From the NCBI GenBank assembly GCA_036554765.1, contig DATBMQ010000126.1, forward strand, positions 1-45,564: a stretch of DNA of 45,564 nucleotides, given 5' to 3'. A program made the translations under genes and the position numbers. Under the pieces are notes generated by a model. It was given only the letters and a program-made list of their open reading frames with translations. It did no database searches and had not been told where the DNA came from. Below are positions 4,311-43,461 of this stretch, piece by piece. This DNA comes from Steroidobacteraceae bacterium. Lineage in GTDB: Bacteria; Pseudomonadota; Gammaproteobacteria; Steroidobacterales; Steroidobacteraceae. Positions within the stretch are counted from its first letter, which is position 1; every line of letters starts with the position of its first letter.

Positions 4311-5897
4311 ATGACCCGACTCCTGCATGAATTGCCGCTCGACAGCGCCGCGCGCCGGGGCGAGGCGACTTGCCTCCTGCACCGGAACGCGACGCTCGAC
4401 TACGCCGCGCTCGCCTCCGCGATCGAAGCCTTCGCGCGCGGCGTCGTCGGCCTCGGCCTGGCGCGCCACGACCGCGTCGCCGTGTTCCTGCCCAAGCAGT
4501 TCGAGACCGTGATCTCGATGTTCGGCGCCGTGCGCGCGGGCTGCGTATTCGTCCCGGTCAACCCGCTGCTCAAGCCGCCCCAGGTCCAGCACATCCTGCG
4601 CGATTGCGGCGTGCGCGCGCTCGTCACCTCGCCGGATCGGCTGGTCGCACTCGCCGGCGCGCTGGACCACTGCCCCGAACTGCGCCACGTCATCGTCACG
4701 GGCGCCGTACCGGACGGCACCGACCCGCTGCAGGCGGGGCCGGTCGCATGGGAGACCCTGCTCGCGGCCGGGCACACGCGACTGCCCCATCGCGTCATCG
4801 ACCTGGACATGGCGGCCATCCTGTACACGTCCGGCAGCACCGGCCGGCCGAAGGGCGTCGTGCTCTCGCATCGGAACATGGTAACCGGGGCCGTGAGCGT
4901 TGCGCAGTATCTCGAGAACCGGCCGGACGACCGTCTGCTCGCGGTGCTGCCGTTCAGCTTCGACTACGGCTTCAGCCAGCTCTCGACCGCGTTCCGGGTC
5001 GGCGCCAGCGTGGTGCTGATGGACTACCTGTTCCCGCGCGACATCGTCACGCTCATGGCCCGCGAGGCGGTCACGGGCCTGGCCGGCGTGCCGCCGCTCT
5101 GGTCGCAACTCGCGGACCTGGAATGGCCGGCGGATGCGACCCGGCGGCTGCGCTACTTCACCAACTCCGGCGGCACCATGCCACGCGCGGTGCTCGAGAA
5201 GCTGCGGCGCGCGCTGCCCGGGGCGAAGCCCTATCTCATGTACGGTCTCACCGAGGCGTTCCGCTCGACCTACCTGCCGGTCGCGGATATCGACCGCAAG
5301 CCCGGTTCGATCGGCAAGGCGATTCCCAACGCCGAGATCCTCGTGGTGAGGCCGGACGGGACGCCGTGCGACGCGGACGAGCCCGGCGAGCTCGTACATC
5401 GCGGCTCGCTGGTCGCGATGGGCTACTGGAACGATCCGGAAAAGACCGCGGAGCGGTTCCGGCCGGCGCCGGGCCGGCCGGACGGCATCGTGATTCCGGA
5501 AATGTCCGTCTGGTCGGGCGACACGGTGCGGATGGACGCCGAGGGGTACCTCTATTTCGTCGGGCGCAGGGACGAGATGATCAAGACCTCGGGCTACCGC
5601 ATCAGCCCGTCGGAGATCGAGGAGGTGGCGTTCGCCTCCGGACTGGTCGCCGATGCAGTCGCGATCGGCGTGGCCCACCCGGAGCTTGGCCACTCGATCG
5701 TGCTGGTGGTCACCGCCGCACAGGGCAAGCCGCCGTCCGACGGGCTGCTCTACGAGGTCTGTCGCCGCGAACTGCCCGCATTCATGGTGCCGGCGCGGAT
5801 CGAGTGGCGCGACTCGTTGCCCAGGAATTCGAACGGCAAGTACGACCGGGTGCTGCTCGCCCGCGAGCTGGGCCAGGCCGCAGGTACCGGCGGATGA
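4311..5897 (+). CDS. Acyl-CoA ligase-like adenylating enzyme (AMP-forming), exosortase A system-associated type
   Basis: ANL core motifs are present: LYTSGSTGRPKGV, YGLTE, GYLYFVGRRDEMIKTSGYRISPSEIE and the terminal NSNGK lysine. I prefer ATG 4311 (MTRLLHEL...) over the track start 4284; neither has a clear SD. Confidence 0.85.
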   Translation: MTRLLHELPLDSAARRGEATCLLHRNATLDYAALASAIEAFARGVVGLGLARHDRVAVFLPKQFETVISMFGAVRAGCVFVPVNPLLKPPQVQHILRDCGVRALVTSPDRLVALAGALDHCPELRHVIVTGAVPDGTDPLQAGPVAWETLLAAGHTRLPHRVIDLDMAAILYTSGSTGRPKGVVLSHRNMVTGAVSVAQYLENRPDDRLLAVLPFSFDYGFSQLSTAFRVGASVVLMDYLFPRDIVTLMAREAVTGLAGVPPLWSQLADLEWPADATRRLRYFTNSGGTMPRAVLEKLRRALPGAKPYLMYGLTEAFRSTYLPVADIDRKPGSIGKAIPNAEILVVRPDGTPCDADEPGELVHRGSLVAMGYWNDPEKTAERFRPAPGRPDGIVIPEMSVWSGDTVRMDAEGYLYFVGRRDEMIKTSGYRISPSEIEEVAFASGLVADAVAIGVAHPELGHSIVLVVTAAQGKPPSDGLLYEVCRRELPAFMVPARIEWRDSLPRNSNGKYDRVLLARELGQAAGTGG

Positions 5898-7129
5898 CGC
5901 TGGAGTTCACGCAGCACGAGACCCATCCGTGGTTCGACGTGAGGGACGACGTGCTTTGCGTCGGCTCCGTGCCGGTGACGGAGATCGCGCGCCGCGCCGG
6001 CCGCACTCCGTTCTACGCCTACGACCGCGGCGTCATGACCCGCAAGGTGGGCATGCTGCGGGAGGTGCTGCCGGACGGACTGCACATTCACTACGCGGTC
6101 AAGGCCAACCCGATGGCGGAAGTCGTGCGCCACTTCGTCGGCCTCGTCGATGGCCTCGACGTGGCCTCCGGCGGCGAACTTGCCGTGGCGCTCGCCGCCG
6201 GCGCCGCGCCCTCCAGCATCAGCTTCGCCGGGCCGGGCAAGAGCATCGCCGAACTGCGCCAGGCGGTCGACGCCGGCATCACGATCAATGCGGAGTCGCC
6301 GCGCGAACTGCGCGAGCTGGCGGCCATCGCGCGGCAGGCCGGGTGCCGGCCGCGGGTCGCATTGCGGGTCAATCCCGATTTCGAGCTCAGGTCTTCCGGC
6401 ATGAAGATGGGCGGCGGCCCCAGGCAGTTCGGCATCGATGCCGAAGCCGTGCCGGAACTGCTGCAACAGTTCGGGTCCATGCCACTCGAGTTCCGCGGCT
6501 TCCACATCTTCTGCGGTTCGCAGAACCTGCGGCCGGAGTCGATCGTGGAAGCGCAGGACCGGACGGTCGAACTGGCGCTGCGCCTGGCCGACGCGGCGCC
6601 GGGCCCGGTGCGCATGCTCAACCTGGGCGGAGGACTGGGCATCCCCTACTTCCCCGGCGAGCGGTCGCTGGACCTGGCGCCGGTCGGCCGCAACCTCGCG
6701 CGGCTGCTGCCGTCCATCCGGGGCCGCATGCCTGAGGCGGAAGTCATCATCGAACTGGGCCGCTACCTGGTCGGGGAGTCGGGCGTGTACGTATGCCGGG
6801 TCCTGGACCGCAAGATCTCCCGCGGCCAGGTGTTCCTCGTGACCGACGGCGGACTGCACCATCACCTGGCCGCTTCCGGCAATTTCGGGCAGGTGCTGCG
6901 CAAGAACTATCCGGTGGTCATCGCCAACCGCGTGCTCGGCACCCGGCGCGAGACGGCTTCCGTGGTGGGTCCGCTGTGCACGCCGCTCGACCTGCTCGCC
7001 GATCGCATGGACCTGGCCGAGGCGCAGGAAGGCGACCTGGTCGCCATCCTCCAGAGCGGCGCCTACGGGATGACGGCGAGCCCGCAGGCGTTCCTGAGTC
7101 ATCCCCGGCCCGCTGAAATCCTCGTCTGA
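5894..7129 (+). CDS. PLP-dependent decarboxylase (Orn/DAP/Arg decarboxylase fold-type III), exosortase A system-associated type
   Basis: This is the real gene inside the 919-aa track ORF 4370..7129. ATG 5894 overlaps the ligase stop (ATGA). Motifs: HYAVKANP (PLP lysine), GGGLGIPY, ELGRYLVGESG, CTPLD. Confidence 0.85.
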   Translation: MTLEFTQHETHPWFDVRDDVLCVGSVPVTEIARRAGRTPFYAYDRGVMTRKVGMLREVLPDGLHIHYAVKANPMAEVVRHFVGLVDGLDVASGGELAVALAAGAAPSSISFAGPGKSIAELRQAVDAGITINAESPRELRELAAIARQAGCRPRVALRVNPDFELRSSGMKMGGGPRQFGIDAEAVPELLQQFGSMPLEFRGFHIFCGSQNLRPESIVEAQDRTVELALRLADAAPGPVRMLNLGGGLGIPYFPGERSLDLAPVGRNLARLLPSIRGRMPEAEVIIELGRYLVGESGVYVCRVLDRKISRGQVFLVTDGGLHHHLAASGNFGQVLRKNYPVVIANRVLGTRRETASVVGPLCTPLDLLADRMDLAEAQEGDLVAILQSGAYGMTASPQAFLSHPRPAEILV

Positions 7130-8451
7130 GCCGGCCCGCGCGGCCTCATCCCGGGCGCGCCGGACTCCGCGCCGGCACGCCGCTGCTGCTCCGCCGCATC
7201 CAGCTTGATGATCACCATCAGGAAGGCGAGGAACCAGACGCGGACTTCCAGCTTCAGGTAATCCACGAACATGTCGCCCACGAACACCGCGATCAGGCTG
7301 GCCGCGACGGCCGGATAGATCGACGCCAGGAAATCGTCGCGTCCGGACAGCGATCGTCGCAGCGCGACGATCCTGCGGCCGACCCAGACGGCGGCGACGA
7401 TGTAGAAGACCGCCCCGAAGATTCCCTGCTCCACCAGCATCGTCATGAACGTGTTGTGCGACGATCGGGCCAGTTCGTCGCCGGTGCGCACGAGGTAGAC
7501 GGCGTCGAGGTACTGCGGGCTCAGCGTCGCCGTACAGCGATGGCCGCAGCCCATCGGGTGCTCCGCGAACATGCTCCACTGGGCATCCAGGACCGCGACC
7601 CGCGCGGCGCCGGTGTCGACGCCCGTGACCTTTTCACCCAGGTGCGTGATGGTCCCCATGCGGGACCAGTACACCGGATTCGTCACCAGCACGAACAGCG
7701 TCAGCGCCAGCACCGACAGCACCCGCACGCGCGCCACGTAGCGCTTCGGGGCGAGGAAGTTGAAGACCAGCCCGGCGATCACGAGCGCCAGGAAGCCGCT
7801 GCGGCTCTGCGTGGCGACCAGCGCGTTGACGATCAGCGGCACGATCAGGAACAGCACGATCTTCTGTCGCCTGGATCCGGCCAGGAACATCGCCGCCGCG
7901 GCCGAAATGCCGGTCACGACCTGCAGTGCGCCGGAATTGGCCTCGTTGATGTCCGGACCGCCAAACCCCTCGAAGCGGCCGCCGAAATACTGCTCGAGGA
8001 CGATGAGTCCGAGATACAGGCAACCCAGGATATGGGCCCAGATCAGCAGGCGCAGGTGCGCGACGGACTCGATGCAGCGGTACATCAGGCCGACCAGCAG
8101 CAGGTACTTCGCATACACCACGACCAGTTCCACGTGCATGTCGAGGTCGAGCGCCCACGACGTCTGCAGGCCGATCCAGAGCAGGAAGACCAGCAGGCCG
8201 ACCATCACGCGGTGACGGAAGAACGGGCTGGGGTCGAGCTTGTCGCGATGGATGATCGACGCCGCCAGGGTGACGACGGCCGCCAGCAGTGACCAGCGCA
8301 GGTCCGGCAGCCCCTCGCCCCACCAGCGGGACGGCGGGTGCAGGTAGAAGACGCCGATGTAGGTCACCAGCCCGTAGATGGGGTGGCGCGCCAGCGCCAT
8401 CAGGCAGCCGCCGAAGTACGCCCCAAGGAATACGAGCCCAGTCAACGACAC
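7099..8451 (-). CDS. O-antigen ligase-like (Wzy_C) membrane protein; putative O-glycosylation ligase, exosortase A-associated type
   Basis: 450-aa ORF with a GTG start. It has about 10 or more TM helices and a large loop (TGVDTGAARVAVLDAQWSMFAEHPMGCGH) as in the O-antigen ligase/polymerase family. Its 3' end overlaps the decarboxylase 3' end by 31 nt. Confidence 0.7.
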   Translation of the reverse strand: MSLTGLVFLGAYFGGCLMALARHPIYGLVTYIGVFYLHPPSRWWGEGLPDLRWSLLAAVVTLAASIIHRDKLDPSPFFRHRVMVGLLVFLLWIGLQTSWALDLDMHVELVVVYAKYLLLVGLMYRCIESVAHLRLLIWAHILGCLYLGLIVLEQYFGGRFEGFGGPDINEANSGALQVVTGISAAAAMFLAGSRRQKIVLFLIVPLIVNALVATQSRSGFLALVIAGLVFNFLAPKRYVARVRVLSVLALTLFVLVTNPVYWSRMGTITHLGEKVTGVDTGAARVAVLDAQWSMFAEHPMGCGHRCTATLSPQYLDAVYLVRTGDELARSSHNTFMTMLVEQGIFGAVFYIVAAVWVGRRIVALRRSLSGRDDFLASIYPAVAASLIAVFVGDMFVDYLKLEVRVWFLAFLMVIIKLDAAEQQRRAGAESGAPGMRPRGPAQTRISAGRG

Positions 8452-8507
8452 GCTTGCTATCCGTGGCCACGGAACGGGATCAACGGTGCTGGCGGTTGAT
8501 TCTGACC

Positions 8508-8544
8508 GAAATCCGCGGACTTAGCCCGTCCGCGGCGGGATTTC
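8508..8544. other. Bulged GC-rich hairpin in the 161-bp gap between the Kelch-like gene and the O-antigen-ligase-like gene
   Basis: GAAAT CCGCGGA cttagcccg TCCGCGG cggg ATTTC: a 7-bp inner stem plus a 5-bp outer stem with a 4-nt bulge. No T-tract follows on the minus strand. Confidence 0.25.
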
Positions 8545-8612
8545 ACGACTCGCCGCAAGCGGTCGCCGCGGTTGCGTGGCCGGGCGCAGCGCCCCTGCGC
8601 TGCCGCCGCTCT

Positions 8613-9761
8613 TCAGTTCACCTGGACCTGGGTGGGAGGATTGGGCGGCACCGCGCTCGAGGCCGACAGCCGCAGGGCATAGGCATTGTTCTCGACCGAA
8701 TTGACCACGACGAACACGCCGGATGCCGGCGAGTACGCGAACCGGCCGTAGGTGCCGTTGCTCAATGCCGCTCCAGGCCCGCCGGAATTCGTGATTGCCG
8801 TCCAGACCCTGGTATCGGGGTTGAGGCTGTAGACCGTGTTGCCGCCGTCCCAGGCGACGATGCGGTCCGAGGCGGGATCGTAGGCGAGCCCGATGGCGCC
8901 GCCCTGCATTGCGCTGGTGGCGCCCGAGGTGCTCCACACCTGGCGCGCGTAATTGCTGCCGGCGGCCAGGCTGTACGCGTACACCCTGCCCTCACCGACG
9001 ATGACGAACAGCTTGCGCTTGGTGTCGACGGTGGCGGTCAGCGACTGGCCCAGGCTCTGGGCTGACGAAAGCCGTGCGTAGGTGTTGGTCTCGAAGGTGT
9101 ACGAATACAGGTACTGCGCATCGTGGATGTAGACCTTGCGCGTGTCGGGATCGTAGGCGGCGACGCGGCCGTAGTTGGCCTCGGGACTCGGGCCCGACGG
9201 ATTCATGCGTTGCCACTGCATGGTGGCAAGGTTCAATGTCCACGTGTCCCCGAGCATCCAGCCGCAGGGAACGCCGGATCCGCCGAACGCAAACATCCGG
9301 TCGGCGTGCGCGATGTAGGCGAGGTGATTGTAGGTGTGGCGCGATACGGGCGTTCCGTCCGGCATGCTGCCGCTGTGCTCGCAGCTCGACGGCGGGTTGA
9401 GGCTCGGGTTGTTCAGGCGCTTCATCGTCAGGTCGGTGAGGTCCAGTGCGTAGACCTCGTTGCCGAGGTAGTCCTGGTGTCCGCCGCCCCAGATCAGCAG
9501 CCGGTTGCGCGTCGTGTCAAAGGTCCCGCCGCCCCAGGCCTCGGTGACGTTGCGGCAGCCGCCATTGCCTTGCAACGACGGTACGTTCGGACAGACCGAC
9601 GCGATCCTGGTGTTCGCCAACTGGTGCCAGCCGGGCGCTGTCGGGATGGACTGTGCACGCGCGGGCGCGCAGACGGCCAGGGCAAGTGCGAGTACGGCGA
9701 GGTTGCCGCCGGTCGCGGCAAGCCGCGACCCACGGAATCGCTGGTTCGAATTTCCCGTCAT
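8613..9761 (-). CDS. Secreted Kelch-like beta-propeller protein, function unknown
   Basis: 382-aa ORF. The signal peptide is ...LAVLALALAVCAPARAQS. Repeated segments (LLIWGGGHQDY, MFAFGGSG, WTLNLATMQW, VYIHD, LFVIVGEG, IVAWDGG) resemble Kelch/galactose-oxidase blades. GGAG lies about 9 nt upstream of the ATG. Noncoding gaps flank the gene on both sides. Confidence 0.6.
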   Translation of the reverse strand: MTGNSNQRFRGSRLAATGGNLAVLALALAVCAPARAQSIPTAPGWHQLANTRIASVCPNVPSLQGNGGCRNVTEAWGGGTFDTTRNRLLIWGGGHQDYLGNEVYALDLTDLTMKRLNNPSLNPPSSCEHSGSMPDGTPVSRHTYNHLAYIAHADRMFAFGGSGVPCGWMLGDTWTLNLATMQWQRMNPSGPSPEANYGRVAAYDPDTRKVYIHDAQYLYSYTFETNTYARLSSAQSLGQSLTATVDTKRKLFVIVGEGRVYAYSLAAGSNYARQVWSTSGATSAMQGGAIGLAYDPASDRIVAWDGGNTVYSLNPDTRVWTAITNSGGPGAALSNGTYGRFAYSPASGVFVVVNSVENNAYALRLSASSAVPPNPPTQVQVN

Positions 9762-9902
9762 GGCCCTGCTCCCGCTGCTGCGATGGTCCCGCAGTTCCGG
9801 CGCGCGTGCCGCCGGCTCGCAGCGCAGTATCCGCCCGCGCCGGCTGCGCCACGGAGCCGGCGCTGTCTCAAATAGCAGACAACCCGCGGTTTGTGAACCA
9901 CG

Positions 9903-11216
9903 TCAAACATTTGTTCCGCCCGGGCGCGCCGGCACACCGGGACTGACCGGCTTTTCCGACCGCGGTTCCCCCGCGATCCTGTCCATCAACCCGGCGAGCA
10001 GGCGGGCCTGGTGCGCGCGGCTCCATTGCCGTGCCACGTCGACCGGTACGCCGGCGGCGCGTCCCGCATGCAGGTCGGCGACAAACTTCGCCAGCCCTTG
10101 CTCGATCCCGGCCGCGTCCTGCATCGGGATGACGGCGGATTCGGGCAGCCCCGCCGCGCGCATGACGGTGGCCGTGTCCCCCTGCGGATCGGTCAGCCCG
10201 AGGATGGGGGTGCCGGCCCGGAAGTATTCGTAGAGCTTGGCCGGGGTCTGGTGATTGCAGTTGGACCCCTGGAAGACGAGCAGGCCGTCCGCGTCGATCA
10301 TCTCGCGCAGGGCTTCGTCGTACGGCAGCGCCGGGGCCAGCTGCACGATGTCGGCCACGCCGAATGCCCTGGCCACACCTTGATAATGCCGATCGTGGCC
10401 GCAGGCCCGCAGTCTCACGCACAAGCGCTCGAACCCGGGCTCGCGCCGTGCCCTCAGCTGCGCCAGCGCGCGGAAGAATGCCGTGGGGTCGCGATCGACC
10501 GGATCCAGCAGGCCGCTGTGCAGCAACAGTACCTGGCCCTCCGGGTGCGGAGCGCGCCTCGCGGCGGCCACATCCACCTGGGCGAAGTGGCCTTCGTCAT
10601 AGCCATTGGGTATGAGGTGCCAGCGATCGGCCGGCACCTCCGGGTACCGGTCCGCATACATGCTGGCCGCGCCAGCGCTCGTAAACACGACTGCACGGGC
10701 CTGGCGCACTGCCTTCGATTCGATGGCCCGCAGCTGGCGGCGCAGCGAGGGATCCGGCGGATAGCCGTCTTCCGTCATGCTGTCCCTCAGGTCCAGGATC
10801 CCTGGAATCCCCGTCCACCGCGAGATGATCCGGCCTCCGACCACGGCGGTCGGGATCGGGAACGTGGACCAGACGAGATCGGGTTTCCAGGACGCGCATT
10901 CCGCGATCCCGCGCGCAACCAGGCCCGGCAGCCAGGTCGACCAGCGATCCGGCCGCGCCAGGATTCCCGGATACGATCCGCGGATCGCCAGGTGCCGCGC
11001 GACGTCCAGGCAGGGCGGGCGCCTGACCACCACGTCCGCCGGGATGTCGCCCATCTGCTCGTCGCTCACCACCGGATACGCGCGGCGCCAGGCGGTCAGG
11101 ATGCGCGGCTGCCAGCCGAAGCGGCCGAGCTCGCGCGCGAAGCCTAGCGTCCGCTGCAGCCCGCTGCTGCCCTTCATGGGCGGGAAGTGAAACGCGATCA
11201 TCAGTACGCGACGCAT
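9903..11216 (-). CDS. Glycosyltransferase, GT-B fold (group 1/GT4-like)
   Basis: The track ORF begins at GTG 11234. ATG 11216 gives MRRVLMIAFHFPPMKGSSGLQRTLGFARELGRFGW, a typical GT4 N-terminus. The C-terminal half carries PAKLYEYFRAGTPILG. Confidence 0.75.
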   Translation of the reverse strand: MRRVLMIAFHFPPMKGSSGLQRTLGFARELGRFGWQPRILTAWRRAYPVVSDEQMGDIPADVVVRRPPCLDVARHLAIRGSYPGILARPDRWSTWLPGLVARGIAECASWKPDLVWSTFPIPTAVVGGRIISRWTGIPGILDLRDSMTEDGYPPDPSLRRQLRAIESKAVRQARAVVFTSAGAASMYADRYPEVPADRWHLIPNGYDEGHFAQVDVAAARRAPHPEGQVLLLHSGLLDPVDRDPTAFFRALAQLRARREPGFERLCVRLRACGHDRHYQGVARAFGVADIVQLAPALPYDEALREMIDADGLLVFQGSNCNHQTPAKLYEYFRAGTPILGLTDPQGDTATVMRAAGLPESAVIPMQDAAGIEQGLAKFVADLHAGRAAGVPVDVARQWSRAHQARLLAGLMDRIAGEPRSEKPVSPGVPARPGGTNV

Positions 11217-11236
11217 GCCGCCCTGCCCGCCCACCG

Positions 11237-12394
11237 TCAGCGCCGCCCGCCGCGACCCACGGTCTCGACCTGCCGGTGCGGCCGCACGCGGCGGACCAGC
11301 GACTTGGCCAGGCCGACCCAGCGGCCCCTGGCGGTCGGCAGGAACACGTACAGGTTGTCGTGGACCCGCAGCTGGTCGGTCCAGTGCATCTTGTGGGGCA
11401 TCACGTCGCCGAGGAAGTCGAACTCCACGGCATCCGATTCAAATGCCTGCCGGATCGCCGTCGCGTTGACCGTCAGTCCCGGTGTCGCCGCGCTCAGGCG
11501 CTCGTCGAAGGACGTCTTCATCTGTCCGAGCCGCCCGCGCCACCGATAGCAGAGGCTGTAGGCCACTGCCGTGCCGCCGACGAACAGGACATTGGCGCTG
11601 AGCGCCTGCTTGCGCGCGAGCCACGGGAGCAACATGCCGTAATAGCGCTGTTCCTGCGCGCTCTCGCTGATCGCCATGCCGGCCCGGACTTTCCAGCTCG
11701 CACTCTCCACCTGGCTGATCAGCCCGAGCAGTTCCGCGACCTCGCCTGGCTGGGTGAAGAAACGCTCGGTCACCTCGCCATGGGCCGCGAGCGCCTTGCG
11801 CTTGCGCTTCAGGTTCTGGCGGAAGTTGGCGCTGCGCGTCGCGAGGTAGCCCTCCCACGAACCCGTCGTCGTGACGTAGGGCGACCGCACGCCGGGTACA
11901 CGCTCCATGCGCGCGCCGCGCGCGCCCGCAAAGGCGGTCGTCGCTGCGTCCGTCGCCCCGCCACGTTCGACCGACGGCACCAGCATCACGTCGCAGGGCC
12001 TGCCGGCGCCCTCCGCGACGGCGCGCAGCAATTCGACGCCGTGCTCGCCGATGAGCTCATGGTGGTAGGCCATCACCCGGTTGCCGGGCAGTTCCCGGAT
12101 GCAGACCCTCAGGCCGCACATCCAGGCGGACGAGTCCACGAATGCGGTGGCGCCTTCCAGGCCGCCCTCGCGGCGATACACGGCGGCGACGGACAGGCAA
12201 TGCCCCAGACCGGCGGTATCCGCGGCGATCAGCGACCATTCGGGCGAGACGCTCAGGTCGGCGAGCCCGGCATCGAAGCGTTCCGCCCACAGCCGGACCG
12301 CCAGCTCGATGTCGCTGCGCAACGTCAGTATCCGGGGGATCGTCATGGACTCGACTCGACGGTCCGGCGCACCGTGTGCCGGCGGACGATTCAT
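11237..12394 (-). CDS. GNAT-fold acyl/aminoacyl transferase, FemAB/CelD (BioF2-like) type, PEP-CTERM system-associated
   Basis: This is the real gene inside the 494-aa track ORF. ATG 12394 overlaps the upstream stop (ATGA); ATG 12346 is an alternative. RSANFRQNLKRKRKALAAHG and the C-terminal FDFLGDVMPHKMHW are typical of CelD/FemAB-like GNAT proteins. Confidence 0.65.
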   Translation of the reverse strand: MNRPPAHGAPDRRVESMTIPRILTLRSDIELAVRLWAERFDAGLADLSVSPEWSLIAADTAGLGHCLSVAAVYRREGGLEGATAFVDSSAWMCGLRVCIRELPGNRVMAYHHELIGEHGVELLRAVAEGAGRPCDVMLVPSVERGGATDAATTAFAGARGARMERVPGVRSPYVTTTGSWEGYLATRSANFRQNLKRKRKALAAHGEVTERFFTQPGEVAELLGLISQVESASWKVRAGMAISESAQEQRYYGMLLPWLARKQALSANVLFVGGTAVAYSLCYRWRGRLGQMKTSFDERLSAATPGLTVNATAIRQAFESDAVEFDFLGDVMPHKMHWTDQLRVHDNLYVFLPTARGRWVGLAKSLVRRVRPHRQVETVGRGGRR

Positions 12395-13098
12395 GGCGTT
12401 GCCGATCGTCCCTTCTCGAATGCCTCCTGCGATCGCCACTGGCCTTCGCGGATCAGCCGGTCGCGCAGGCCCGTCAGCGGGTGGCCCATGCCATAGGCAA
12501 TGGCCGCGTGCTCGTTGGCCTGGTCGTAGTCCTTGACGTCCGCATACAGCAGCGCGAGGTTGTAGTGCAGCTCCATCGAGGGACCCTCCTGCAACCTGAC
12601 GGCTTCGCGCAGTTGTTCGATGGCCTCCGTGTGCCGTCCCTTGCGCGCCAGGTACATGGAGTAAATCTGCCGCACGACGATGTCGTCCGGATAGCCGCGG
12701 ATCGCGCGGTCGAAGTAGCAATCCGCCGACAGGAAACGCATCTGCTTCCCGCCTTCCAGGAAGTACCGCGCCATCACGCGCAGCGCCCGGTGATGGTTGG
12801 GAAAGTGGAACAGGATGAAGTTGAGGTCCCCCAGGACCTCGTTCGTGGACTGCCCCCGGATCAACTGCTGCACGTCGGAGTTGAAATGAAAGGTGTTGAC
12901 GGTCTGCAGGTCGGCCGCGTTGGCCCGGTCGCGGTAGTCGAACGGGCCGATCGTGCCGCCACCGAGCTTGCCGCAGATGGCCTCACCGACCGCCACCGCG
13001 GCCGGCGGGTCGTCCTGTGGTTTCTCAGCCGCCGCAGCAGGCCCTGCGACTGCCGCAGCCGCCAGCAACGAGAGCAGGCGCGCGAAATGACGCTTCAT
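12391..13098 (-). CDS. Secreted TPR-like repeat protein
   Basis: ATG 13098 gives MKRHFARLLSLLAAAAVAGPAAAAE, a signal peptide. The C-terminal half has TPR-like helical repeats (YLARKGRHTEAIEQLREAVRLQEGPSMELHYNLALLYADVKDYDQANEHAAIAY). The upstream part of the track ORF (13099..13347) is Arg/Ser-rich and non-protein-like. Confidence 0.55.
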   Translation of the reverse strand: MKRHFARLLSLLAAAAVAGPAAAAEKPQDDPPAAVAVGEAICGKLGGGTIGPFDYRDRANAADLQTVNTFHFNSDVQQLIRGQSTNEVLGDLNFILFHFPNHHRALRVMARYFLEGGKQMRFLSADCYFDRAIRGYPDDIVVRQIYSMYLARKGRHTEAIEQLREAVRLQEGPSMELHYNLALLYADVKDYDQANEHAAIAYGMGHPLTGLRDRLIREGQWRSQEAFEKGRSATP

Positions 13099-13150
13099 GG
13101 CACGTGAACCCCGTTGGGTGTCAGAAAACGAGATACCCGGGCGGCGCCGG

Positions 13151-14002
13151 TCAGCGACATGGGACCGTCGCCTCCTGCGCCAGCCACTGCGCGCACGTGC
13201 GACAGGCGCTGTCCAGCACGGCCCGCTCCGAAAAAGTGTGGTCGGCCCCGGGCAGGTCACGGAGCGTGACACCCGGGCGGCCGACGGCCTGGCGCCACTC
13301 GGCCTGGCCGCGGCAGAGTTGCTCGAACTGCCGCGCGACCAGGTCATGCTCGCTCAGCAGGATCAATACCCTCCCCTGGAACGCGCGCAGGCCGGCCAGC
13401 ATCCGCTCCACGTAGGGTGTCGACCCGCCGCGATCGCGCGCGGCGACCAGGCGACGCCGCCAGTCCCTCACCGATGCCAGCAGGTCGACCTGCAGCGAAA
13501 GCAGCTTGCGCCAGAAACTCCGTTGCAGCAGCCGGCGACCGTAATAGTGACGGACATAGGCGTCGGCCTCGCGCGCCTCCGAGTGAACCCAGGGATTCAC
13601 CAGCACCAGGCCATGGATCCTCGGGTCCCTGCAGCCATGCATCAGGATGGCGGACGCACCGTCGCACAGGCCCCACAGCACCAGCCTTTCCAGCGACGGC
13701 ACGCAGCGCTGGAACTCCGCGATGCCGGCGGCGATGTCCTGCGCCGCATGCTCGAATCCCGGCGACTGCGCCGCGCTGTCCCCCATGCCACGCATGTCGA
13801 AGCGCATGACCGGATAGCCGTTGCCGGCCAGTTCGCGCGCCAGCAGCGTGAACTGGCGATGGCTGCCGACGCGGTACTGCGGCCCGCCCACGATGACGAG
13901 CACGCCGGTCACGGGAGCGTCCGCTGCGGGTCGATGCAGGACGCCGACCAACGGCTCGCCAGCGCATGCGAACACGACCGCCTCCTCCGGGGTGCCAGTC
14001 AT
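13151..14002 (-). CDS. Alpha/beta-fold 'hydrolase 1, exosortase A system-associated' type
   Basis: This is the real gene inside the 544-aa track ORF. ATG 14002 overlaps the upstream stop (ATGA). Motifs: MTGTPEEAVVFACAGEPLVGVLH..., VIVGGPQYRVGSHRQF, FDMRGMGDS, nucleophile elbow LWGLCDGAS, and PGADHTF near the C-terminus. Confidence 0.8.
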   Translation of the reverse strand: MTGTPEEAVVFACAGEPLVGVLHRPAADAPVTGVLVIVGGPQYRVGSHRQFTLLARELAGNGYPVMRFDMRGMGDSAAQSPGFEHAAQDIAAGIAEFQRCVPSLERLVLWGLCDGASAILMHGCRDPRIHGLVLVNPWVHSEAREADAYVRHYYGRRLLQRSFWRKLLSLQVDLLASVRDWRRRLVAARDRGGSTPYVERMLAGLRAFQGRVLILLSEHDLVARQFEQLCRGQAEWRQAVGRPGVTLRDLPGADHTFSERAVLDSACRTCAQWLAQEATVPCR

Positions 14003-14841
14003 GTTGGACCCGCCAGAGCGGCGATCGTGCCGTCGACCAGCGGGCGGTTGACGACGATCTCGGTGGCGGCCCAGAACGGTTCGCCTGCGACCGCCAGGGG
14101 CGAGACGCGCACGCCCAAGGCGCGCGCCTGTTCGATCGCGCGGCCTGCTGCGTCCGGCATCGCCGGCGGATCCGACCTGGCCACTTCCATCCAGCACAGC
14201 TCGCCCAGGGCCGGCGAGATGATGTCTGCCAGCCGGATGCGGTCGATCCGGTCTGCGAGCCTCGGCCCCAGCGCGTAGCCCGCGATCTCCAGGACATCGC
14301 CGGCCGTCATGCGTGCCCGCAGGCTGGTCGTCGTTTCCGCCGGGCCATCGGACACCATTGCCGCCGCCACCCGCAGCCTCAGGAATTGCGTCAGGTACGT
14401 GCGCCCGTCCGCTACCGGGGCCCAGAATACTGCGTGGGAGATCGGCTCCGGCAGCTCGCGCACTGCCTCGGCGGCCAGCGCGCAGCCCAGGCGGATGCCG
14501 AGCATGGCGTCCACCGGCCAGCCCTGCGCAGCGGCCCATGCCGCCGTCGCGACGATGTCCCGCCGCCAGGCGTCCCAGTCGGCGTCGCGGAACTCGCCGT
14601 CGCTGTCGCCGGTGCCGCCCAGGTCCGGCAGGACCGTGGCGATGCCACGGGTCGCCAGCCGGTCCGCCAGTTGCGCAATCGACGGTCGCGACTTGTTCAT
14701 CTCCTCCGCAAATGGCGGGACCACGAGCACGCAGCGGCCCGTGACCTGCCCGGGAAACCGCGCCACGACCAGGATCCTGCCGCAAGCGCCATCGATGAAC
14801 CGGGCGACCAGCCGGTGCCGGCTCAATGTGACTGCTTCCAC
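13999..14841 (-). CDS. Alpha/beta-fold 'hydrolase 2, exosortase A system-associated' type
   Basis: 280-aa ORF. The GTG start at 14841 overlaps the ACP 3' end by 19 nt; TTG at 14826 is an alternative. Motifs: VVPPFAEEMNKSR, DLGGTGDSDGEF, MLGIRLGCALA, GEPFWAATE. Confidence 0.75.
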   Translation of the reverse strand: MEAVTLSRHRLVARFIDGACGRILVVARFPGQVTGRCVLVVPPFAEEMNKSRPSIAQLADRLATRGIATVLPDLGGTGDSDGEFRDADWDAWRRDIVATAAWAAAQGWPVDAMLGIRLGCALAAEAVRELPEPISHAVFWAPVADGRTYLTQFLRLRVAAAMVSDGPAETTTSLRARMTAGDVLEIAGYALGPRLADRIDRIRLADIISPALGELCWMEVARSDPPAMPDAAGRAIEQARALGVRVSPLAVAGEPFWAATEIVVNRPLVDGTIAALAGPT

Positions 14842-15074
14842 GAGACGAAATCGGCGAGGGTGCCCAGGGTCCTGAACGTGTCGGCCGACACCTCGTCGTC
14901 CGCGACGGCGAATCCGAACTCGTCCTCGATCATCGTCAGGACGGTCACGACCGCCATCGAATCGAACTCCGCAATGTCGCCGAGCAACCCGCTCTCCCGC
15001 GTCAGGCGCCCGGCGCGTTCCCCGAGCTGCAGTGCGTCGCGCAGGATGCGCTTCAGGCGGTCCGTCACGTCCAT
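14823..15074 (-). CDS. Free-standing acyl carrier protein
   Basis: 83 aa, acidic. GDIAEFDSMAVVTVLTMIEDEF contains the DSx phosphopantetheine-attachment serine in the usual helix-2 context. Confidence 0.85.
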   Translation of the reverse strand: MDVTDRLKRILRDALQLGERAGRLTRESGLLGDIAEFDSMAVVTVLTMIEDEFGFAVADDEVSADTFRTLGTLADFVSWKQSH

Positions 15075-15086
15075 CGCTTCATTCCT

Positions 15087-16250
15087 TCAGCCCTGGCCGG
15101 CAGCGGCATCGCGCGCGCGGGCGGAGTTCCAGGTCGTATAGGTCTTGCCGCGCCATGCGTCCACGATGCCGGCCGCGCTCGCCACGTTGACGAGCGCGAA
15201 ATAGAAGGGCACCGACACCAGCGCCGGCAGTGACCGGCGATTGCGCAATGCCAGCCCGGCCAGCGCCAGCAGGTAGCATGCGGCCTGCAGCGCCAGCGAC
15301 AGCTGATACACGGGCCCCTGGTCCAGCAGCGCGGCGTTCGCCGCCAGCAGGACGCCGAGGAAGAACGGCACCAGCCAGCGCAGCAGCTTGTGCGAGATCA
15401 GCATGACGGAGAACATGCCGAACCGCAGCGGGTTCAGCAGTTCGCGCATGCGCATCGTGGCGCGCCAGGCCCGGTTGACGATCCGGACCTTGCGGCGAAA
15501 CTCCTTGTGGAAAGTGTCGGCGGCGCGCTCATAGGAGCGGGCGGCCGGCTCATACACGCAGCGGTGGCCCGCGCGGACCACCTGCAGGGGATTCACGAAA
15601 TCCGACAGGGCGTCCGGCGGCATCGGCGCATACAGTTGCCGGCGCACGGCGTAGATCGCGCCGTCCCCGCCCACGGCCGATCCGACCTGCGATTCGAGCA
15701 GCTTGATGGCCGTTTCGTATCGCCAGTACAGGCCTTCGCTGTGCTCCGATGCCGCCGCGGGATCGACGTAGGTGGATTCGCCGACGACCGCGCCGACCCG
15801 GGGATCGGCGAAATTCCTCACCAGCATGGCGATCGCATCGGGCCGGTACAGCGCATTCGCGTCGGAAAAGACGACCACCTCGCCGGTTGCGCGCGACATC
15901 GCCGCATTGAGCCCCGCGGTCTTGCCTCCACGCGCCGCCATCCGCAACAGCTCGACGCCGTCGGCGGCGAACTCCGCGACCACCTGGTCGGTACCGTCGT
16001 CCGACGCATCCGAGATCACCAGCACCTGCAGCTTGCCGCGCGGGTACTCGAGCTCCAGCGAGTTGCGGAGCTTGGCGCCGATCACGTCCTGCTCGTTGTA
16101 GGCGGATATCATCAGCGTCACGGCCGGCTGCCCGACCCCGCGCCGAGGCTCGCGCGGCCCGCGCACGCGGCGGATCGCCCACAGCAGCAGCGGGTAGCCG
16201 ACGTACACGTACGCGATGACGGCGGCCGCCGCCCAGAACAGGATTTTCAT
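15087..16250 (-). CDS. Membrane-embedded family 2 glycosyltransferase (synthase-like)
   Basis: ATG 16250 gives MKILFWAAAAVIAYVYVGYPLLLW, a TM helix. This is followed by LMISAYNE, VISDASDDGT, VVFSDANA, RIVNRAWR (QxxRW-like) and C-terminal TM helices. The 52-codon upstream extension in the track ORF runs into the AT-richer intergenic DNA. Confidence 0.8.
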   Translation of the reverse strand: MKILFWAAAAVIAYVYVGYPLLLWAIRRVRGPREPRRGVGQPAVTLMISAYNEQDVIGAKLRNSLELEYPRGKLQVLVISDASDDGTDQVVAEFAADGVELLRMAARGGKTAGLNAAMSRATGEVVVFSDANALYRPDAIAMLVRNFADPRVGAVVGESTYVDPAAASEHSEGLYWRYETAIKLLESQVGSAVGGDGAIYAVRRQLYAPMPPDALSDFVNPLQVVRAGHRCVYEPAARSYERAADTFHKEFRRKVRIVNRAWRATMRMRELLNPLRFGMFSVMLISHKLLRWLVPFFLGVLLAANAALLDQGPVYQLSLALQAACYLLALAGLALRNRRSLPALVSVPFYFALVNVASAAGIVDAWRGKTYTTWNSARARDAAAGQG

Positions 16251-16263
16251 GATAGAAGTACCA

Positions 16264-16351: not shown

Positions 16352-18151
16352 ATGGAGCTGACAGGGTTTGCCGGCCTCTGGCAGGAGCCAGGCGCCGTCC
16401 AGGCAATGCGCCGCCATCTGGCGGCCGCCAGCGGTCAGGGCCCGTCTGCGACGCCCTGTGACTGCCACGCGCCGACGCTGCTCGAGCAGGATGACATAAT
16501 CATCGCGGTCCGCGGGAGCCCGAGCCTGCCACCGCGCGAGCTCCTGCTGGCGTATCGCGAGCGCGATGCCGGACTGCTGCAGTCGCTCACTGGATCATTC
16601 GCGCTGGCGATCGTGGACCGCTCCCGGCGGCGCGTCCTGCTGGCCATCGATCGCATGGGCATCGAGCGCCTGGCCTACAGCGTGCGCGCCGATGGCATCG
16701 TCTTCTCGTCATCGGTCGCCGCCGTCGCGCACTGTCCGGCCGTTGGCGCGGGGCTCAGGTCCCAGGCGCTCTACGAGTTCCTGTTGCTGCACATGGTGCC
16801 CGCGCCGGGGACCGTGTACGAAGGCGTGGACAAGCTGCGCGCCGGGACCTGCGTCATCTACGAGGACGGGCGCGCAAGAACGCAGCGCTACTGGGCGCCG
16901 CGCTTTGCGGCGACCGCCGATGCGCCGTTGCCGGTCCTCGAGGAGGAACTCAGGAACAGCCTGACGGCCGCAGTCGCGGATTGCCACCCCGACGCCAGCA
17001 CGGGCGCTTTTCTGAGCGGCGGCCTGGACAGCTCGACCATCGCCGGATTGCTGGGTGCCGTGTCGTCGCGGCCGCCCAGGACGTTCTCGATCGGTTTCGG
17101 GGTCGCGGCCTATGACGAGATGAAGTACGCCGGCATCGCCAACCGGCACTTTGGCGCGATTGCCAGCGAGTACCAGGTCACGCCGGATGACATCGTCACC
17201 GCGATACCGCTGATCGCCGGCGCCTTTGACGAACCGTTCGGCAACTCCTCGGCGGTCCCGACCTATTTCTGCGCGAAACTGGCTGCGGATGCCGGCGTGA
17301 CGCACCTGCTCGCCGGGGACGGCGGCGACGAACTTTTCGGCGGCAACGAACGGTATGTCCGACAGCGCCTCTTCGAGGCCTATTGGCAGCTGCCGGCGGG
17401 CCTGCGACGCAGCTTGATCGAACCGGTCTCGCGGTGGATCGCCCCCGAGTCGCGGATCATGCCGCTACGCAAGTTCCGCAGCTACGTGGACCAGGCGCGC
17501 ATCCCGATGCCGGAGCGGCTCGAATCCTGGAATCTCGTCTATCGGACCGATCCGGACGTCATGCTGGAACCCGGCTTCCGGCGCGCCATCGATCCGCGCG
17601 CGCCGTTCGCGTCCATGGACGAGGTCTACCGCGGCACGGCGGCCGCGACCCTGCTGGACCGCATGCAGGGATTCGACTGGCAGTACACGCTGTCGGACAA
17701 CGACCTGCGCAAGGTGGGCGTCATGTGCCGGGCCGCGGGCGTGCGCGTCTCGTTCCCGATGCTGGATCAGCGCGTGATCGACCTCTCCCTGCGCGTGCCC
17801 GCCCGCCTCAAGCTCCGGGGCATGAAGCTGCGGACGTTCTACAAGCGCGCCATGGATGGCTTCCTGCCGGCGGCGATCATCGCCAAGACCAAGCACGGGT
17901 TCGGCCTTCCATTCGGGGACTGGCTGCGGACCCACCGCGGCCTGGCCGACCTGGTCTACGGGTTGCTGGCCGACCTGAAGCGGCGGCACATCGTGCGCGG
18001 TGCGTTCGTGGACGAACTGATCGACGGCCACCGCACGGGGCATGCGTCGTACTTCGGCTACGCGATCTGGGACCTGGCCATGCTCGAGGCGTGGCTGCAG
18101 CAGCAGGCGATGCGGGGTGCGGCGGACCCTAGACCTGCGGACAGGGAATGA
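16352..18151 (+). CDS. Asparagine synthase family protein lacking the N-terminal catalytic cysteine (degenerate amidotransferase domain, intact synthetase domain)
   Basis: 599-aa ORF. The N-terminus is MELTGFAGLW instead of MCGxxG, and no RGPD or RRLSIID motifs are present. The synthetase PP-loop FLSGGLDSST and GDGGDELFGG are intact. Confidence 0.85.
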   Translation: MELTGFAGLWQEPGAVQAMRRHLAAASGQGPSATPCDCHAPTLLEQDDIIIAVRGSPSLPPRELLLAYRERDAGLLQSLTGSFALAIVDRSRRRVLLAIDRMGIERLAYSVRADGIVFSSSVAAVAHCPAVGAGLRSQALYEFLLLHMVPAPGTVYEGVDKLRAGTCVIYEDGRARTQRYWAPRFAATADAPLPVLEEELRNSLTAAVADCHPDASTGAFLSGGLDSSTIAGLLGAVSSRPPRTFSIGFGVAAYDEMKYAGIANRHFGAIASEYQVTPDDIVTAIPLIAGAFDEPFGNSSAVPTYFCAKLAADAGVTHLLAGDGGDELFGGNERYVRQRLFEAYWQLPAGLRRSLIEPVSRWIAPESRIMPLRKFRSYVDQARIPMPERLESWNLVYRTDPDVMLEPGFRRAIDPRAPFASMDEVYRGTAAATLLDRMQGFDWQYTLSDNDLRKVGVMCRAAGVRVSFPMLDQRVIDLSLRVPARLKLRGMKLRTFYKRAMDGFLPAAIIAKTKHGFGLPFGDWLRTHRGLADLVYGLLADLKRRHIVRGAFVDELIDGHRTGHASYFGYAIWDLAMLEAWLQQQAMRGAADPRPADRE

Positions 18152-19331
18152 AGTCCTTCGAAAAGATGACCTGGTCGTAGCGGTGCCAGAACTCCGAGTT
18201 GTTCAGGTTGTTGTTGTAGGTCGAGAGCAGCAGTCCATTCCATCCCCGGCGCATCGAATCGCCGGTGTCGTAGTCCGTCGCGTAGATGACGTCCCAGATC
18301 TTCGTATACGAGGTCTCACCCTGGTGGGCCGCGTAAACGACGATCCGGTTCTCGCGGACATTGGCGCGGCCTGGTGTCACGTGATACATCAAGGTGTCCC
18401 AGCCGCCCGAGAATCGCCAGCAGTACTGGCGCAGACTCGACGTGTAGACGTCGCAGTACTGGTTCGCGCCGTAGTTCGCCAGATCCGAGCCTTGCTGCTG
18501 GCCCGGGCGGCCCAGCGAATCCAGGTCCTCGAGCGGCGGGCTGCCGGCCACGTACATGCGGTGGTAATTGGGCCCACCGGCGACCGGGAATGCGCCTGAG
18601 TACGTGACGATCTCCTGCGCGGTCAGGGAGAAGCGCGTCGTCGTCAGGAACACCAGCTTGCCGACCTGGGAATTGCCGGCGGTCGTCCGGCGCGGATCCT
18701 GCTTGACCCGCAACTGCACGTAGAACTGGGTTCCGTCGAACGCGGTACCCGTGTGGTACGAGGAATGCCCGTACCAGCCGGGACGATTCGTGAATATCCA
18801 GTCCCAGGTCTGGCTGCCGCCATCCGTGGCCACGTAGTTCTGCGGTGGAAGCGTGCCGTTGGCGCCGGGATCATTGACGCCGCGCCCGTTGCCGGCACCG
18901 ACGACCGGGCTGAAAGGCCGCCACCAGTGACCCACCGAATCACTGGTGCCGGCTGGACGCAGGATCTCGAGGCAGCCGCCGCCGGTCACGCCATCGGTCG
19001 CGATGCGCCGGCACCGCGCCGCGCCATTGCCGCGCGCCAGCGGGTCATTGCCGCCGGAGTAACCGGAGGTCCAGCGAAAGGCATTGACCTCGGCATCGCT
19101 GCGAAAGTCATTGAACCAGACCACACCCGGCTGCGGGAATGCGGGATTCTGTCCGGTCCGCAGCAGCCAGTCCGCCTCGGCATTGCCCACGACGCAGGCC
19201 GTGTTCTGCGACTGCCCGCCGTCCACGCCGAATGTCGGCGGCGGACAGGGGCGCGACTGGGCGCGCAGGAAACCCGGCAGCAGCGAACCCGCCAGGCCGG
19301 CGGATGCAATCAGCACGTCTCTGCGTTTCAC
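18129..19331 (-). CDS. Tat-signal periplasmic/secreted protein of unknown function
   Basis: 400-aa ORF with a GTG start and GGAG 8 nt upstream. The N-terminus MKRRDVLIASAGLAGSLLPGFLRAQS shows the twin-arginine pattern. The mature part is Gly/Trp/Tyr/Asn-rich and I recognise no motif. Its 3' end overlaps the convergent AsnB-like gene by 23 nt. Confidence 0.65.
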   Translation of the reverse strand: MKRRDVLIASAGLAGSLLPGFLRAQSRPCPPPTFGVDGGQSQNTACVVGNAEADWLLRTGQNPAFPQPGVVWFNDFRSDAEVNAFRWTSGYSGGNDPLARGNGAARCRRIATDGVTGGGCLEILRPAGTSDSVGHWWRPFSPVVGAGNGRGVNDPGANGTLPPQNYVATDGGSQTWDWIFTNRPGWYGHSSYHTGTAFDGTQFYVQLRVKQDPRRTTAGNSQVGKLVFLTTTRFSLTAQEIVTYSGAFPVAGGPNYHRMYVAGSPPLEDLDSLGRPGQQQGSDLANYGANQYCDVYTSSLRQYCWRFSGGWDTLMYHVTPGRANVRENRIVVYAAHQGETSYTKIWDVIYATDYDTGDSMRRGWNGLLLSTYNNNLNNSEFWHRYDQVIFSKDFIPCPQV

Positions 19332-27711: not shown

Positions 27712-27757
27712 GTCAGTGGCCGTCCTCGACTGCCAGCGCGCGTTGTCGGACAATCAA

Positions 27758-43025: not shown

Positions 43026-43203
43026 ACCACGCACGACGCCGGCGCCGCAGGGCTGCGGCGTGTCGGCGGATTTGACGAACCCCGTCGGCAGTCTAGACGA
43101 TCAAAGTGGCCGGAGCGTGAACTGCGTCACAGTCCGCCGAGATGCTACATTTGGCTTATATGCTTGATCTGCCGAACAAAAACCACCCTGGAGCGGTCAC
43201 GCC

Positions 43204-43461
43204 ATGAGCGACCTCAAGAAGGCATTCGAAGCGGCCCAGGCAGCCGCCAAGAAGCTGCCGGCGAAGCCCGACAACGACACGCTGCTGGAGCTCTACTCGT
43301 ACTACAAGCAGGCGACCGAGGGCGACGCCGCGGGCGACCGTCCCGGCGCCTTCGACTTCGTGGCACGCGCCAAGTACGACGCCTGGGCCGCGCGCAAGGG
43401 GATGAGCAAGGACGTGGCCATGAAGGGCTACGTCAAGCTGGTCGAGCACCTGCAAGGATAG
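43204..43461 (+). CDS. Acyl-CoA-binding protein (ACBP family)
   Basis: 85 aa. It shows the ACBP signature DNDTLLELYSYYKQATEGD ... KYDAW ... GMSKDVAMKGYV. GGAG lies about 10 nt upstream of the ATG. Confidence 0.9.
   Translation: MSDLKKAFEAAQAAAKKLPAKPDNDTLLELYSYYKQATEGDAAGDRPGAFDFVARAKYDAWAARKGMSKDVAMKGYVKLVEHLQG

Follow-up and report, generated by a model that had tools for sequence, protein, structure and literature searches.

The 45,564-nt contig DATBMQ010000126.1 of a Steroidobacteraceae bacterium (GenBank assembly GCA_036554765.1), referred to below in its full length as the window, contains a gene cassette centered on a free-standing acyl carrier protein (ACP). We propose, with moderate confidence, that this cassette makes an omega-aminoacyl carrier protein, most likely beta-alanyl-ACP, to decorate an exopolysaccharide. 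Its core comprises five genes (Table 1): an ANL adenylating enzyme (the ligase, TIGR03098), a fold-type III pyridoxal 5'-phosphate (PLP) decarboxylase (TIGR03099), the ACP, and two alpha/beta-fold proteins, here called hydrolase 2 (TIGR03101) and hydrolase 1 (TIGR03100). An initial annotation of the window had described the ligase as coupled to the decarboxylase through an ATGA overlap, and the carrier protein with its DSM serine as followed by the two alpha/beta-fold proteins through overlapping junctions. Both descriptions hold, and all five proteins score above the cut-offs of their models (PF00550 for the ACP). The start of the decarboxylase overlaps the stop of the ligase as ATGA in the sequence GGATGACG, and the start of hydrolase 2, either GTG at 14841 or TTG at 14826, overlaps the stop of the ACP. 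The families are also those that the annotation had linked to exosortase A: all four TIGR families carry NCBIfam names with the words “exosortase A system-associated.”

The window has a G+C content of about 69%, and genes were therefore called by codon-position GC and then checked against profile libraries (NCBIfam, Pfam). Statements below on the gene content of the window refer to about 40 open reading frames (ORFs), supported by GC at the third codon position, that were scanned against NCBIfam, Pfam or both. A metagenomic contig with 85% identity and independent gene calls has the same gene set and gene sizes. No ketosynthase (KS), acyltransferase (AT), condensation (C) or thioesterase (TE) domains were found among the scanned ORFs, in agreement with the earlier view that this is a single-loading system with a free carrier, and not a polyketide synthase (PKS) or nonribosomal peptide synthetase (NRPS) line.

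Judged from its pocket residues, the ligase is VinN-like, and neither DltA-like nor a fatty-acid ligase. When the pocket segment (residues 190–340) was used alone, VinN was the top PDB match. D218 of the ligase lies at the position of VinN D230 and GrsA D235 and is invariant in 70 of 70 homologs; S286 corresponds to VinN S299 and is Ser or Thr in all 70, and R320, at the position of VinN R331, is kept in at least 90% of them. The alignment with VinN runs without gaps through the beta13-beta14 loop, which has the same length in both enzymes, and both show the same 2-residue gap relative to a GrsA fragment. In VinN, D230 is reported to bind the substrate alpha-amino group, and S299 and R331 to hold the alpha-carboxyl group of 3-methylaspartate (PMC7756342), and a shortened beta13-beta14 loop is characteristic of VinN-type enzymes (PMC11253843). 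Since S286 and R320 occupy the carboxyl-binding positions of VinN, the substrate would keep a free alpha-carboxyl group and be activated at its side-chain carboxyl. An amino acid of this kind is the most likely substrate, with aspartate or a close analogue fitting best.

These residues also bear on another reading of the cassette, in which the ligase would be a fatty acyl-AMP/ACP ligase and the products would be N-acyl amine or N-acyl amino acid lipids that anchor the polymer or processed PEP-CTERM proteins. The NCBIfam name “acyl-CoA ligase” is in keeping with it, as are the next-best NCBIfam families, long-chain fatty-acid ligases, which match at 299 bits, below their own cut-offs. An acyl-CoA-binding protein is encoded at 43168–43461, the amine of the beta-alanyl-ACP of the bolagladin pathway is fatty-acylated, and a link between N-acyl amino acid synthases and exosortases was reportedly made by Craig in 2011. 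We nevertheless ranked a fatty-acid ligase low because of the invariant Asp equivalent to GrsA D235 and the VinN-type pocket, which are not expected in such enzymes. Moreover, the scanned ORFs gave no match to a KS, an AT, a KAS III or an acyltransferase of lipid type, and the gene for the acyl-CoA-binding protein lies 28 kb from that of the ACP. Such a lipid anchor is therefore, in our estimation, decidedly improbable.

The decarboxylase is BtrK-like and is predicted to act on an ACP-bound amino acid. Its top PDB match is BtrK, the L-glutamyl-[BtrI ACP] decarboxylase (277 bits, E = 1.5e-81, 40% identity), while the best diaminopimelate (DAP) decarboxylase reached 180 bits and 33% identity. 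The PLP lysine and the other catalytic motifs show no variation across 12 members of the family. The decarboxylase and BtrK have in common a loop with the motif DGG[LM]HHH and an insertion of 6 residues; the corresponding stretch of DAP decarboxylase is DAGMNDLIRPS, the Arg of which binds the distal carboxylate of DAP. BtrK decarboxylates gamma-glutamyl-S-BtrI (PMC7857480). The earlier statement that the decarboxylase “makes or edits an amine” can thus be refined, its nearest characterized relative being an enzyme that acts on a carrier-bound amino acid. A search for the exact decarboxylase sequence gave no record; the best genome match comes from an uncultured Sinobacteraceae metagenome-assembled genome (71% identical), a Steroidobacteraceae one reaching 67%, and the family comprises at least 8000 clusters at 90% identity. 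Many of the copies in databases are named “diaminopimelate decarboxylase,” as the ligase family is named “acyl-CoA ligase”; both labels are probably wrong.

The initial annotation had compared the loading step with that of DltA and DltC. Loading of an amino acid onto the ACP is indeed predicted, but the VinN-like character of the ligase departs from this comparison, and no homolog of DltB (MBOAT) or DltD was matched among the scanned ORFs. A fully Dlt-like system would use the ligase to load an ordinary alpha-amino acid on the ACP for esterification of the polymer, with the decarboxylase separately making a diamine from free DAP, ornithine or lysine. Placement of the decarboxylase in the DAP decarboxylase clade (the lysA model scores it at 249 bits) is consistent with this, and the ligase has the Asp typical of amino-acid-activating adenylation (A) domains; its full-length PDB search returned NRPS A domains first (LgrA A domain, 256 bits), followed by VinN (3WVN, 200 bits). 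On the other hand, BtrK scores about 100 bits above any DAP decarboxylase, and the loop for the distal carboxylate is replaced by a BtrK-type one. The ligase and decarboxylase genes show translational coupling and lie side by side in 63 of 70 loci, and the Arg and Ser/Thr at the carboxyl-binding positions imply a free alpha-carboxyl group on the substrate. Together with the lack of DltB and DltD matches, these features make the Dlt-like alternative unlikely.

The composition of the cassette was assessed in related genomes. A pattern scan restricted to one genome per species gave 80 loci in Beta- and Gammaproteobacteria, including Zoogloea, Thauera, Accumulibacter, Competibacter, Nitrosomonas, Roseateles, Massilia and Steroidobacteraceae, and 54 long loci were used for profile counts. 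The count of 63 refers to loci in which the ligase gene is directly upstream of the decarboxylase gene, out of 70 with room for it. An ACP gene was found within 10 kb of the decarboxylase gene in 36 of the 54 long loci, and in two more the trio of ACP and hydrolase genes runs off the edge. The order ACP, hydrolase 2, hydrolase 1 is kept in 30 of 34 loci. In one locus (L056) the genes for the ligase, the decarboxylase, the ACP, hydrolase 2, hydrolase 1 and a paralog of the asparagine synthetase AsnB are consecutive on one strand; in another (L016) the two halves of the cassette are arranged divergently. The DSM motif of the ACP (FDSMAV) is kept in 39 homologs and is the predicted phosphopantetheinylation site; the best PDB match of the ACP is an uncharacterized protein (2LKI, 78 bits). 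Taken together, the linkage and profile counts define the core as the ligase, the decarboxylase, the ACP, hydrolase 2 and hydrolase 1. Often the AsnB paralog joins these five as a sixth, and the genes for a tetratricopeptide repeat (TPR) protein, a GNAT and a GT4-like protein form an accessory shell. All genes of the six-gene set delineated by the initial annotation are present, but the AsnB paralog and the GT4-like gene belong with them too, and the GNAT is a weaker member.

A membrane GT2 glycosyltransferase gene, the first of the ACP operon in the window, was considered as a further conserved partner and rejected: it lies directly upstream of the ACP gene in the window and in L081 and L083, and the profile search found this arrangement in only 2 of 34 loci.

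The two alpha/beta-fold proteins of the core differ in their predicted roles. In hydrolase 1, C112, D219 and H254 are invariant in 59 sequences and correspond to a Cys-Asp-His triad. C112 aligns with the nucleophile Ser of esterases, and in the structural model (pLDDT 88) it lies between strand 105–111 and helix 113–122, which is the nucleophile elbow. This suggests that hydrolase 1 is an acyl-S-enzyme transferase rather than a hydrolase, because its Cys nucleophile would face a thioester donor, and makes it a candidate off-loading enzyme. A second Cys, C12 in the motif VFxCxG, is also invariant in the 59 sequences.

In hydrolase 2, the residue aligned with the esterase nucleophile is Arg116, located at the strand-helix elbow of the model (pLDDT 94). 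All 53 sequences compared keep R116 and the motif PFAEEMNKSR, which comes after the third strand, but they have no Ser or His in common. No classical hydrolase action would therefore be possible, and we infer that hydrolase 2 is probably a non-catalytic partner. Neither protein has the classical Ser-Asp/Glu-His triad at the nucleophile elbow, and a fold search with both models retrieved only generic small esterases and lipases (TM 0.6–0.8). The alpha/beta fold thus occurs here in an unstudied variation, with a Cys enzyme paired to a pseudo-hydrolase that has Arg in place of the nucleophile. No signal-peptide-like start was seen in hydrolase 1 or hydrolase 2 when read by eye, which fits partners of a cytoplasmic ACP. 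The previous suggestion that the GNAT and hydrolase-fold proteins move the ACP-bound group is thus retained for hydrolase 1, with its Cys triad, and weakened for hydrolase 2, which has neither a nucleophile nor a conserved His and could not transfer the group in the usual way.

It could be argued that hydrolases 1 and 2 act instead as an enzyme similar to polyhydroxyalkanoate (PHA) synthase, joining aminoacyl thioesters into a short polyamide, for example oligo-beta-alanine, that would be free or attached to the polymer. The Cys of hydrolase 1 is invariant, its G-x-C-x-[GA] nucleophile elbow and thioester substrate presumably resemble those of PhaC, and the pairing of a catalytic and a non-catalytic subunit recalls two-subunit synthases. 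However, the listed matches (13 by PDB sequence, 50 by fold) include no PhaC or other PHA synthase, small esterases come nearest in structure, and hydrolase 1, with about 280 amino acids, has less than half the size of PhaC. We regard such a polymerase as very improbable.

Among the genes around the core, the AsnB paralog has an intact synthetase domain and a degenerate glutaminase domain. At its N-terminus, MELTGFAGL takes the place of the usual MCGLAGL, so the Cys nucleophile is gone, and only the C-terminal part of the glutamine amidotransferase (GATase) domain is matched. The MCG motif is likewise missing from high-scoring orthologs in about 25 related loci, many of these orthologs being encoded directly after the decarboxylase gene. 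By profile search, an AsnB-like match occurs in 27 of the 54 long loci and in 17 of the 29 that have the trio. From these features the paralog should form an acyl-adenylate and then an amide, with an amine other than glutamine-derived ammonia. The window contains four asparagine-synthase paralogs in all (732–2627, 16352–18151, about 22755–24650 and 25786–27753), only one of which reaches the TIGR03108 cut-off (989 bits).

For the GNAT, the Pfam match supports the CelD/FemAB-like assignment of the initial annotation, but no FemAB-type or PEP-CTERM-specific NCBIfam model matched it up to E = 0.1, including TIGR03019, the family of FemAB-related proteins associated with the PEP-CTERM system. The NCBIfam scan returned only the BspF GNAT model (32.8 bits), and the PDB sequence search gave nothing significant. 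The gene was found within 10 kb of the decarboxylase gene in only 20 of the 54 long loci (16 of the 29 with the trio). The GNAT may acylate either the freed amine or the acceptor. The TPR protein, likewise described before, is present and has a signal-peptide-like N-terminus, MKRHFARLLSLLAAAAVAGPAAAA, with the correction that its start is at 13098 and not at the ORF maximum of 13347. Its homologs were found by profile search in 22 of the 54 long loci and 16 of the 29. The GT4-like gene occurs in 20 of the 54 and 15 of the 29; it is often directly after the hydrolase 1 gene and adjoins it in L027, L046, L052 and L054.

Table 1. Features of the cassette and of the surrounding exosortase locus in the window.
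Feature	Position	Strand	Supporting observations
ANL adenylating enzyme (ligase)	4311–5897	+	TIGR03098, 770 bits (cut-off 592); PF00501, PF13193
Fold-type III PLP decarboxylase	5894–7129	+	TIGR03099, 605 bits (cut-off 478); ATGA overlap with ligase
Divergent GT-B (GT4-like) protein	9903–11234	-	PF13439, 38 bits
PF13480 (CelD/FemAB-like) GNAT	11237–12394	-	PF13480, 77.5 bits; ATGA overlap with TPR gene
Small secreted TPR protein	12391–13098	-	Weak Pfam TPR matches
Hydrolase 1	13151–14002	-	TIGR03100, 326 bits (cut-off 168); ATGA overlap with hydrolase 2
Hydrolase 2	13999–14841	-	TIGR03101, 222 bits (cut-off 203)
Free-standing ACP	14823–15074	-	PF00550, 29.9 bits (cut-off 20.8); phosphopantetheine serine in FDSMAV
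Membrane GT2 glycosyltransferase	15087–16253	-	Partial matches to PgaC-/NodC-type GT2 models; first gene of ACP operon
AsnB paralog, degenerate glutaminase domain	16352–18151	+	PF00733, 251 bits; synthetase domain intact
Exosortase-EpsI fusion	36667–~38145	-	189.7 bits (XrtA cut-off 208); general exosortase model passed
PEP-CTERM protein	45087–45563

Based on these results, a five-step scheme can be outlined. In the first step, the VinN-like ligase would adenylate the beta-carboxyl of L-aspartate or a close analogue and load it as isoaspartyl-S-ACP, as its pocket residues indicate. The BtrK-like decarboxylase, to judge from homology and gene linkage, would then strip the alpha-carboxyl group on the carrier, giving beta-alanyl-S-ACP. 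In a third and speculative step, the freed amine might be acylated on the carrier, the candidates being the glutaminase-dead AsnB paralog and the PF13480 GNAT. Cys112 of hydrolase 1, given the invariant residues, would next take over the acyl group as a thioester and pass it to a hydroxyl or amine of a lipid-linked repeat unit at the cytoplasmic face, while hydrolase 2, which lacks a nucleophile, may serve as a docking or regulatory partner. Finally, flipping, polymerization and export of the modified unit would fall to the products of flanking genes, namely the MOP flippase, the Wzy-like protein and the export proteins of the XrtA system. The acceptor could be the polymer, a lipid or the acceptor of XrtA; since the enzymes appear to be cytoplasmic and their genes are interleaved with those of the MOP flippase, the Wzy-like protein and glycosyltransferases, the most economical guess is the lipid-linked repeat unit.

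Several points weigh against the proposed synthesis of a beta-alanyl-ACP for polysaccharide decoration. The best full-length PDB match of the ligase is the LgrA A domain, which activates an alpha-amino acid, and not VinN. Only three pocket residues favor aspartate over glutamate or another acidic amino acid; the position of VinN F231 holds Tyr in the ligase of the window and Ala in 37 of 70 family members, and that of K330 holds Phe in the window. The fold search gave no hint of transferase activity for either hydrolase. The ACP-hydrolase trio is missing from the 10-kb flanks in about one-third of the loci, so that its co-occurrence may not be strict. We found no published biochemistry on any member of the TIGR03098–TIGR03101 families, and we know of no exopolysaccharide from these bacteria that carries beta-alanine.

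The initial annotation had regarded the module as the best candidate in the window for genuinely new biochemistry. This is unlikely to apply to loading and decarboxylation, which are probably a new instance of known logic in a new setting, because the Vin, Flv, Bol and Btr pathways follow the same logic; what may be new is the downstream part, that is, the off-loading and the acceptor. Its further suggestion, transfer of the ACP-bound group to the acceptor of XrtA, is possible but weakened, as the presence of the cassette is not known for every XrtA locus. In the related loci, a marker of the XrtA system was found within 10 kb of the decarboxylase gene in 13 of 51 cases; the XrtA of the window itself is about 30 kb away, beyond flanks of this size. 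A more specific version would make the beta-alanyl amine, possibly extended by the FemAB-like enzyme, a handle on the lipid-linked repeat that, once exported, serves as the nucleophile with which exosortase A resolves its acyl-enzyme with PEP-CTERM proteins, so that protein and polymer become covalently joined. We consider this a long shot; if true, it would parallel, in Gram-negative bacteria, the action of sortase on the pentaglycine of lipid II that Fem enzymes build.

The window as a whole is a classical XrtA/PEP-CTERM exopolysaccharide locus. Curated cut-offs were exceeded for PrsK, PrsR, PrsT, TIGR03013, TIGR03007, TIGR03006, TIGR03027, TIGR03108 and TIGR04063, so that the markers include the TIGR03013 priming transferase, the chain-length determinant and the stp3 glycosyltransferase, and the models for the XrtA-system deacetylase, export protein and amidotransferase all passed. 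Matches to the tyrosine autokinase and outer-membrane protein models were below their cut-offs. The other markers around the exosortase-EpsI fusion are all XrtA-type, and the exosortase may be a slightly divergent XrtA.

Some further genes of the locus deserve mention. The acyl-CoA-binding protein (97 aa, plus strand; PF00887, 100 bits) is encoded between the TIGR03013 priming transferase and a GFO/IDH/MocA-family oxidoreductase similar to UDP-GlcNAc 3-dehydrogenase; its presence among polysaccharide genes is unexpected and may point to a step that depends on acyl-CoA. A second gene of the polysaccharide deacetylase family (PF01522; 19434–20423, minus strand) has homologs that directly adjoin the ACP-hydrolase trio in several loci (L027, L075), and a de-N-acetylated sugar amine would be a plausible acceptor of the ACP-bound group. 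Between the Wzy-like and GT4-like genes lies a gene for a secreted Kelch beta-propeller protein (8613–9761, minus strand) with homologs in 9 of the 54 related loci. Two well-supported coding regions (18129–19331 and 1–1077, both on the minus strand) gave no Pfam or NCBIfam match; homologs of the protein of the former, 46–55% identical, occur in L001 and L011. In two relatives (L081, 1–1749; L084, 1–1601), the region just past the position at which the window begins on the left encodes, each time, a second AMP-binding enzyme, a short-chain dehydrogenase and a protein of 102 aa without a Pfam match. The 102-aa protein could be another carrier protein and thus part of a second carrier-type module.

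In agreement with the initial annotation, our literature searches found no substrate, product or phenotype for the TIGR03098–TIGR03101 families; none of the papers found assigns them a function, and they are not mentioned by Haft (2006). As late as 2025, the moiety that exosortases attach was called unidentified in a published paper, and the cassette provides a concrete candidate for it. Genes of the four families occur very commonly among environmental Beta- and Gammaproteobacteria, and the principal bacteria that form flocs and granules in wastewater treatment, such as Zoogloea, Accumulibacter, Competibacter, Thauera and Nitrosomonas, are among their hosts. Our proposal offers the first concrete, testable chemistry for genes that have carried placeholder names for years. 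If it is true, the mass of the ACP should increase by 115 Da and then decrease by 44 Da, and beta-alanine should appear in polymer hydrolysates. Aminoacylation would add positive charge to an anionic matrix, affecting floc cohesion and cation binding.

Comparison with characterized systems places the cassette among several known pathways. With the Dlt system (DltA-DltC-DltB-DltD) it shares the use of an ANL enzyme to load an amino acid on a small carrier for the aminoacylation of a surface polymer. In contrast, the Dlt system has no decarboxylase and depends on the MBOAT protein DltB and extracellular DltD, neither of which was matched in the window; the ligase is also nearer to VinN, and no D-alanine ligase or DltA chain was present among its 60 listed PDB matches.

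The butirosin pathway for the 4-amino-2-hydroxybutyrate (AHBA) side chain (BtrI-BtrJ-BtrK-BtrH-BtrG) includes BtrK, the closest solved relative of the decarboxylase with shared loop motifs, and passes its carrier-bound product to a carbohydrate acceptor. It differs in that loading is performed by the ATP-grasp enzyme BtrJ with glutamate as the substrate, and none of the scanned ORFs matched a hydroxylase of the BtrO/BtrV type. Neither BtrH, the transferase, nor BtrG, which removes the protecting group, is known to be related in fold to hydrolases 1 and 2. A closer parallel in proteobacteria is BolO-BolC-BolN of the bolagladin pathway in Burkholderia gladioli, where a VinN-like ligase, a free ACP and a BtrK-like decarboxylase are proposed to convert aspartate to beta-alanyl-ACP. 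The BtrK-like BolN is essential in Burkholderia, and the bolN deletion was not rescued by free beta-alanine. However, the Bol enzymes feed an NRPS line for a lipodepsipeptide, and the amine is fatty-acylated by KAS III homologs; neither is found in the window.

The vicenistatin (VinN/VinL/VinO) and fluvirucin (FlvN/O, Asp to beta-Ala) pathways combine a ligase, a free ACP and a PLP decarboxylase acting on the thioester (PMC11284099). In both, as predicted here, a stand-alone ANL enzyme activates the beta-carboxyl of aspartate or 3-methylaspartate onto the free ACP, and the PLP decarboxylase then removes the alpha-carboxyl on the carrier; the ligase of the window keeps the equivalents of VinN D230, S299 and R331 as well as the loop length. 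Acylation of the freed amine on the carrier is common to all of these precedents, the enzyme being VinM, BtrJ or BolM/P. Unlike the Vin and Flv systems, the cassette includes neither a PKS nor an acyltransferase of the VinK type, and it lacks a second ANL enzyme of the VinM type. Furthermore, its host is a proteobacterium and not an actinomycete, its genes lie inside a Wzx/Wzy exopolysaccharide and exosortase locus, and its off-loading appears to use a Cys alpha/beta-fold enzyme together with a pseudo-hydrolase.

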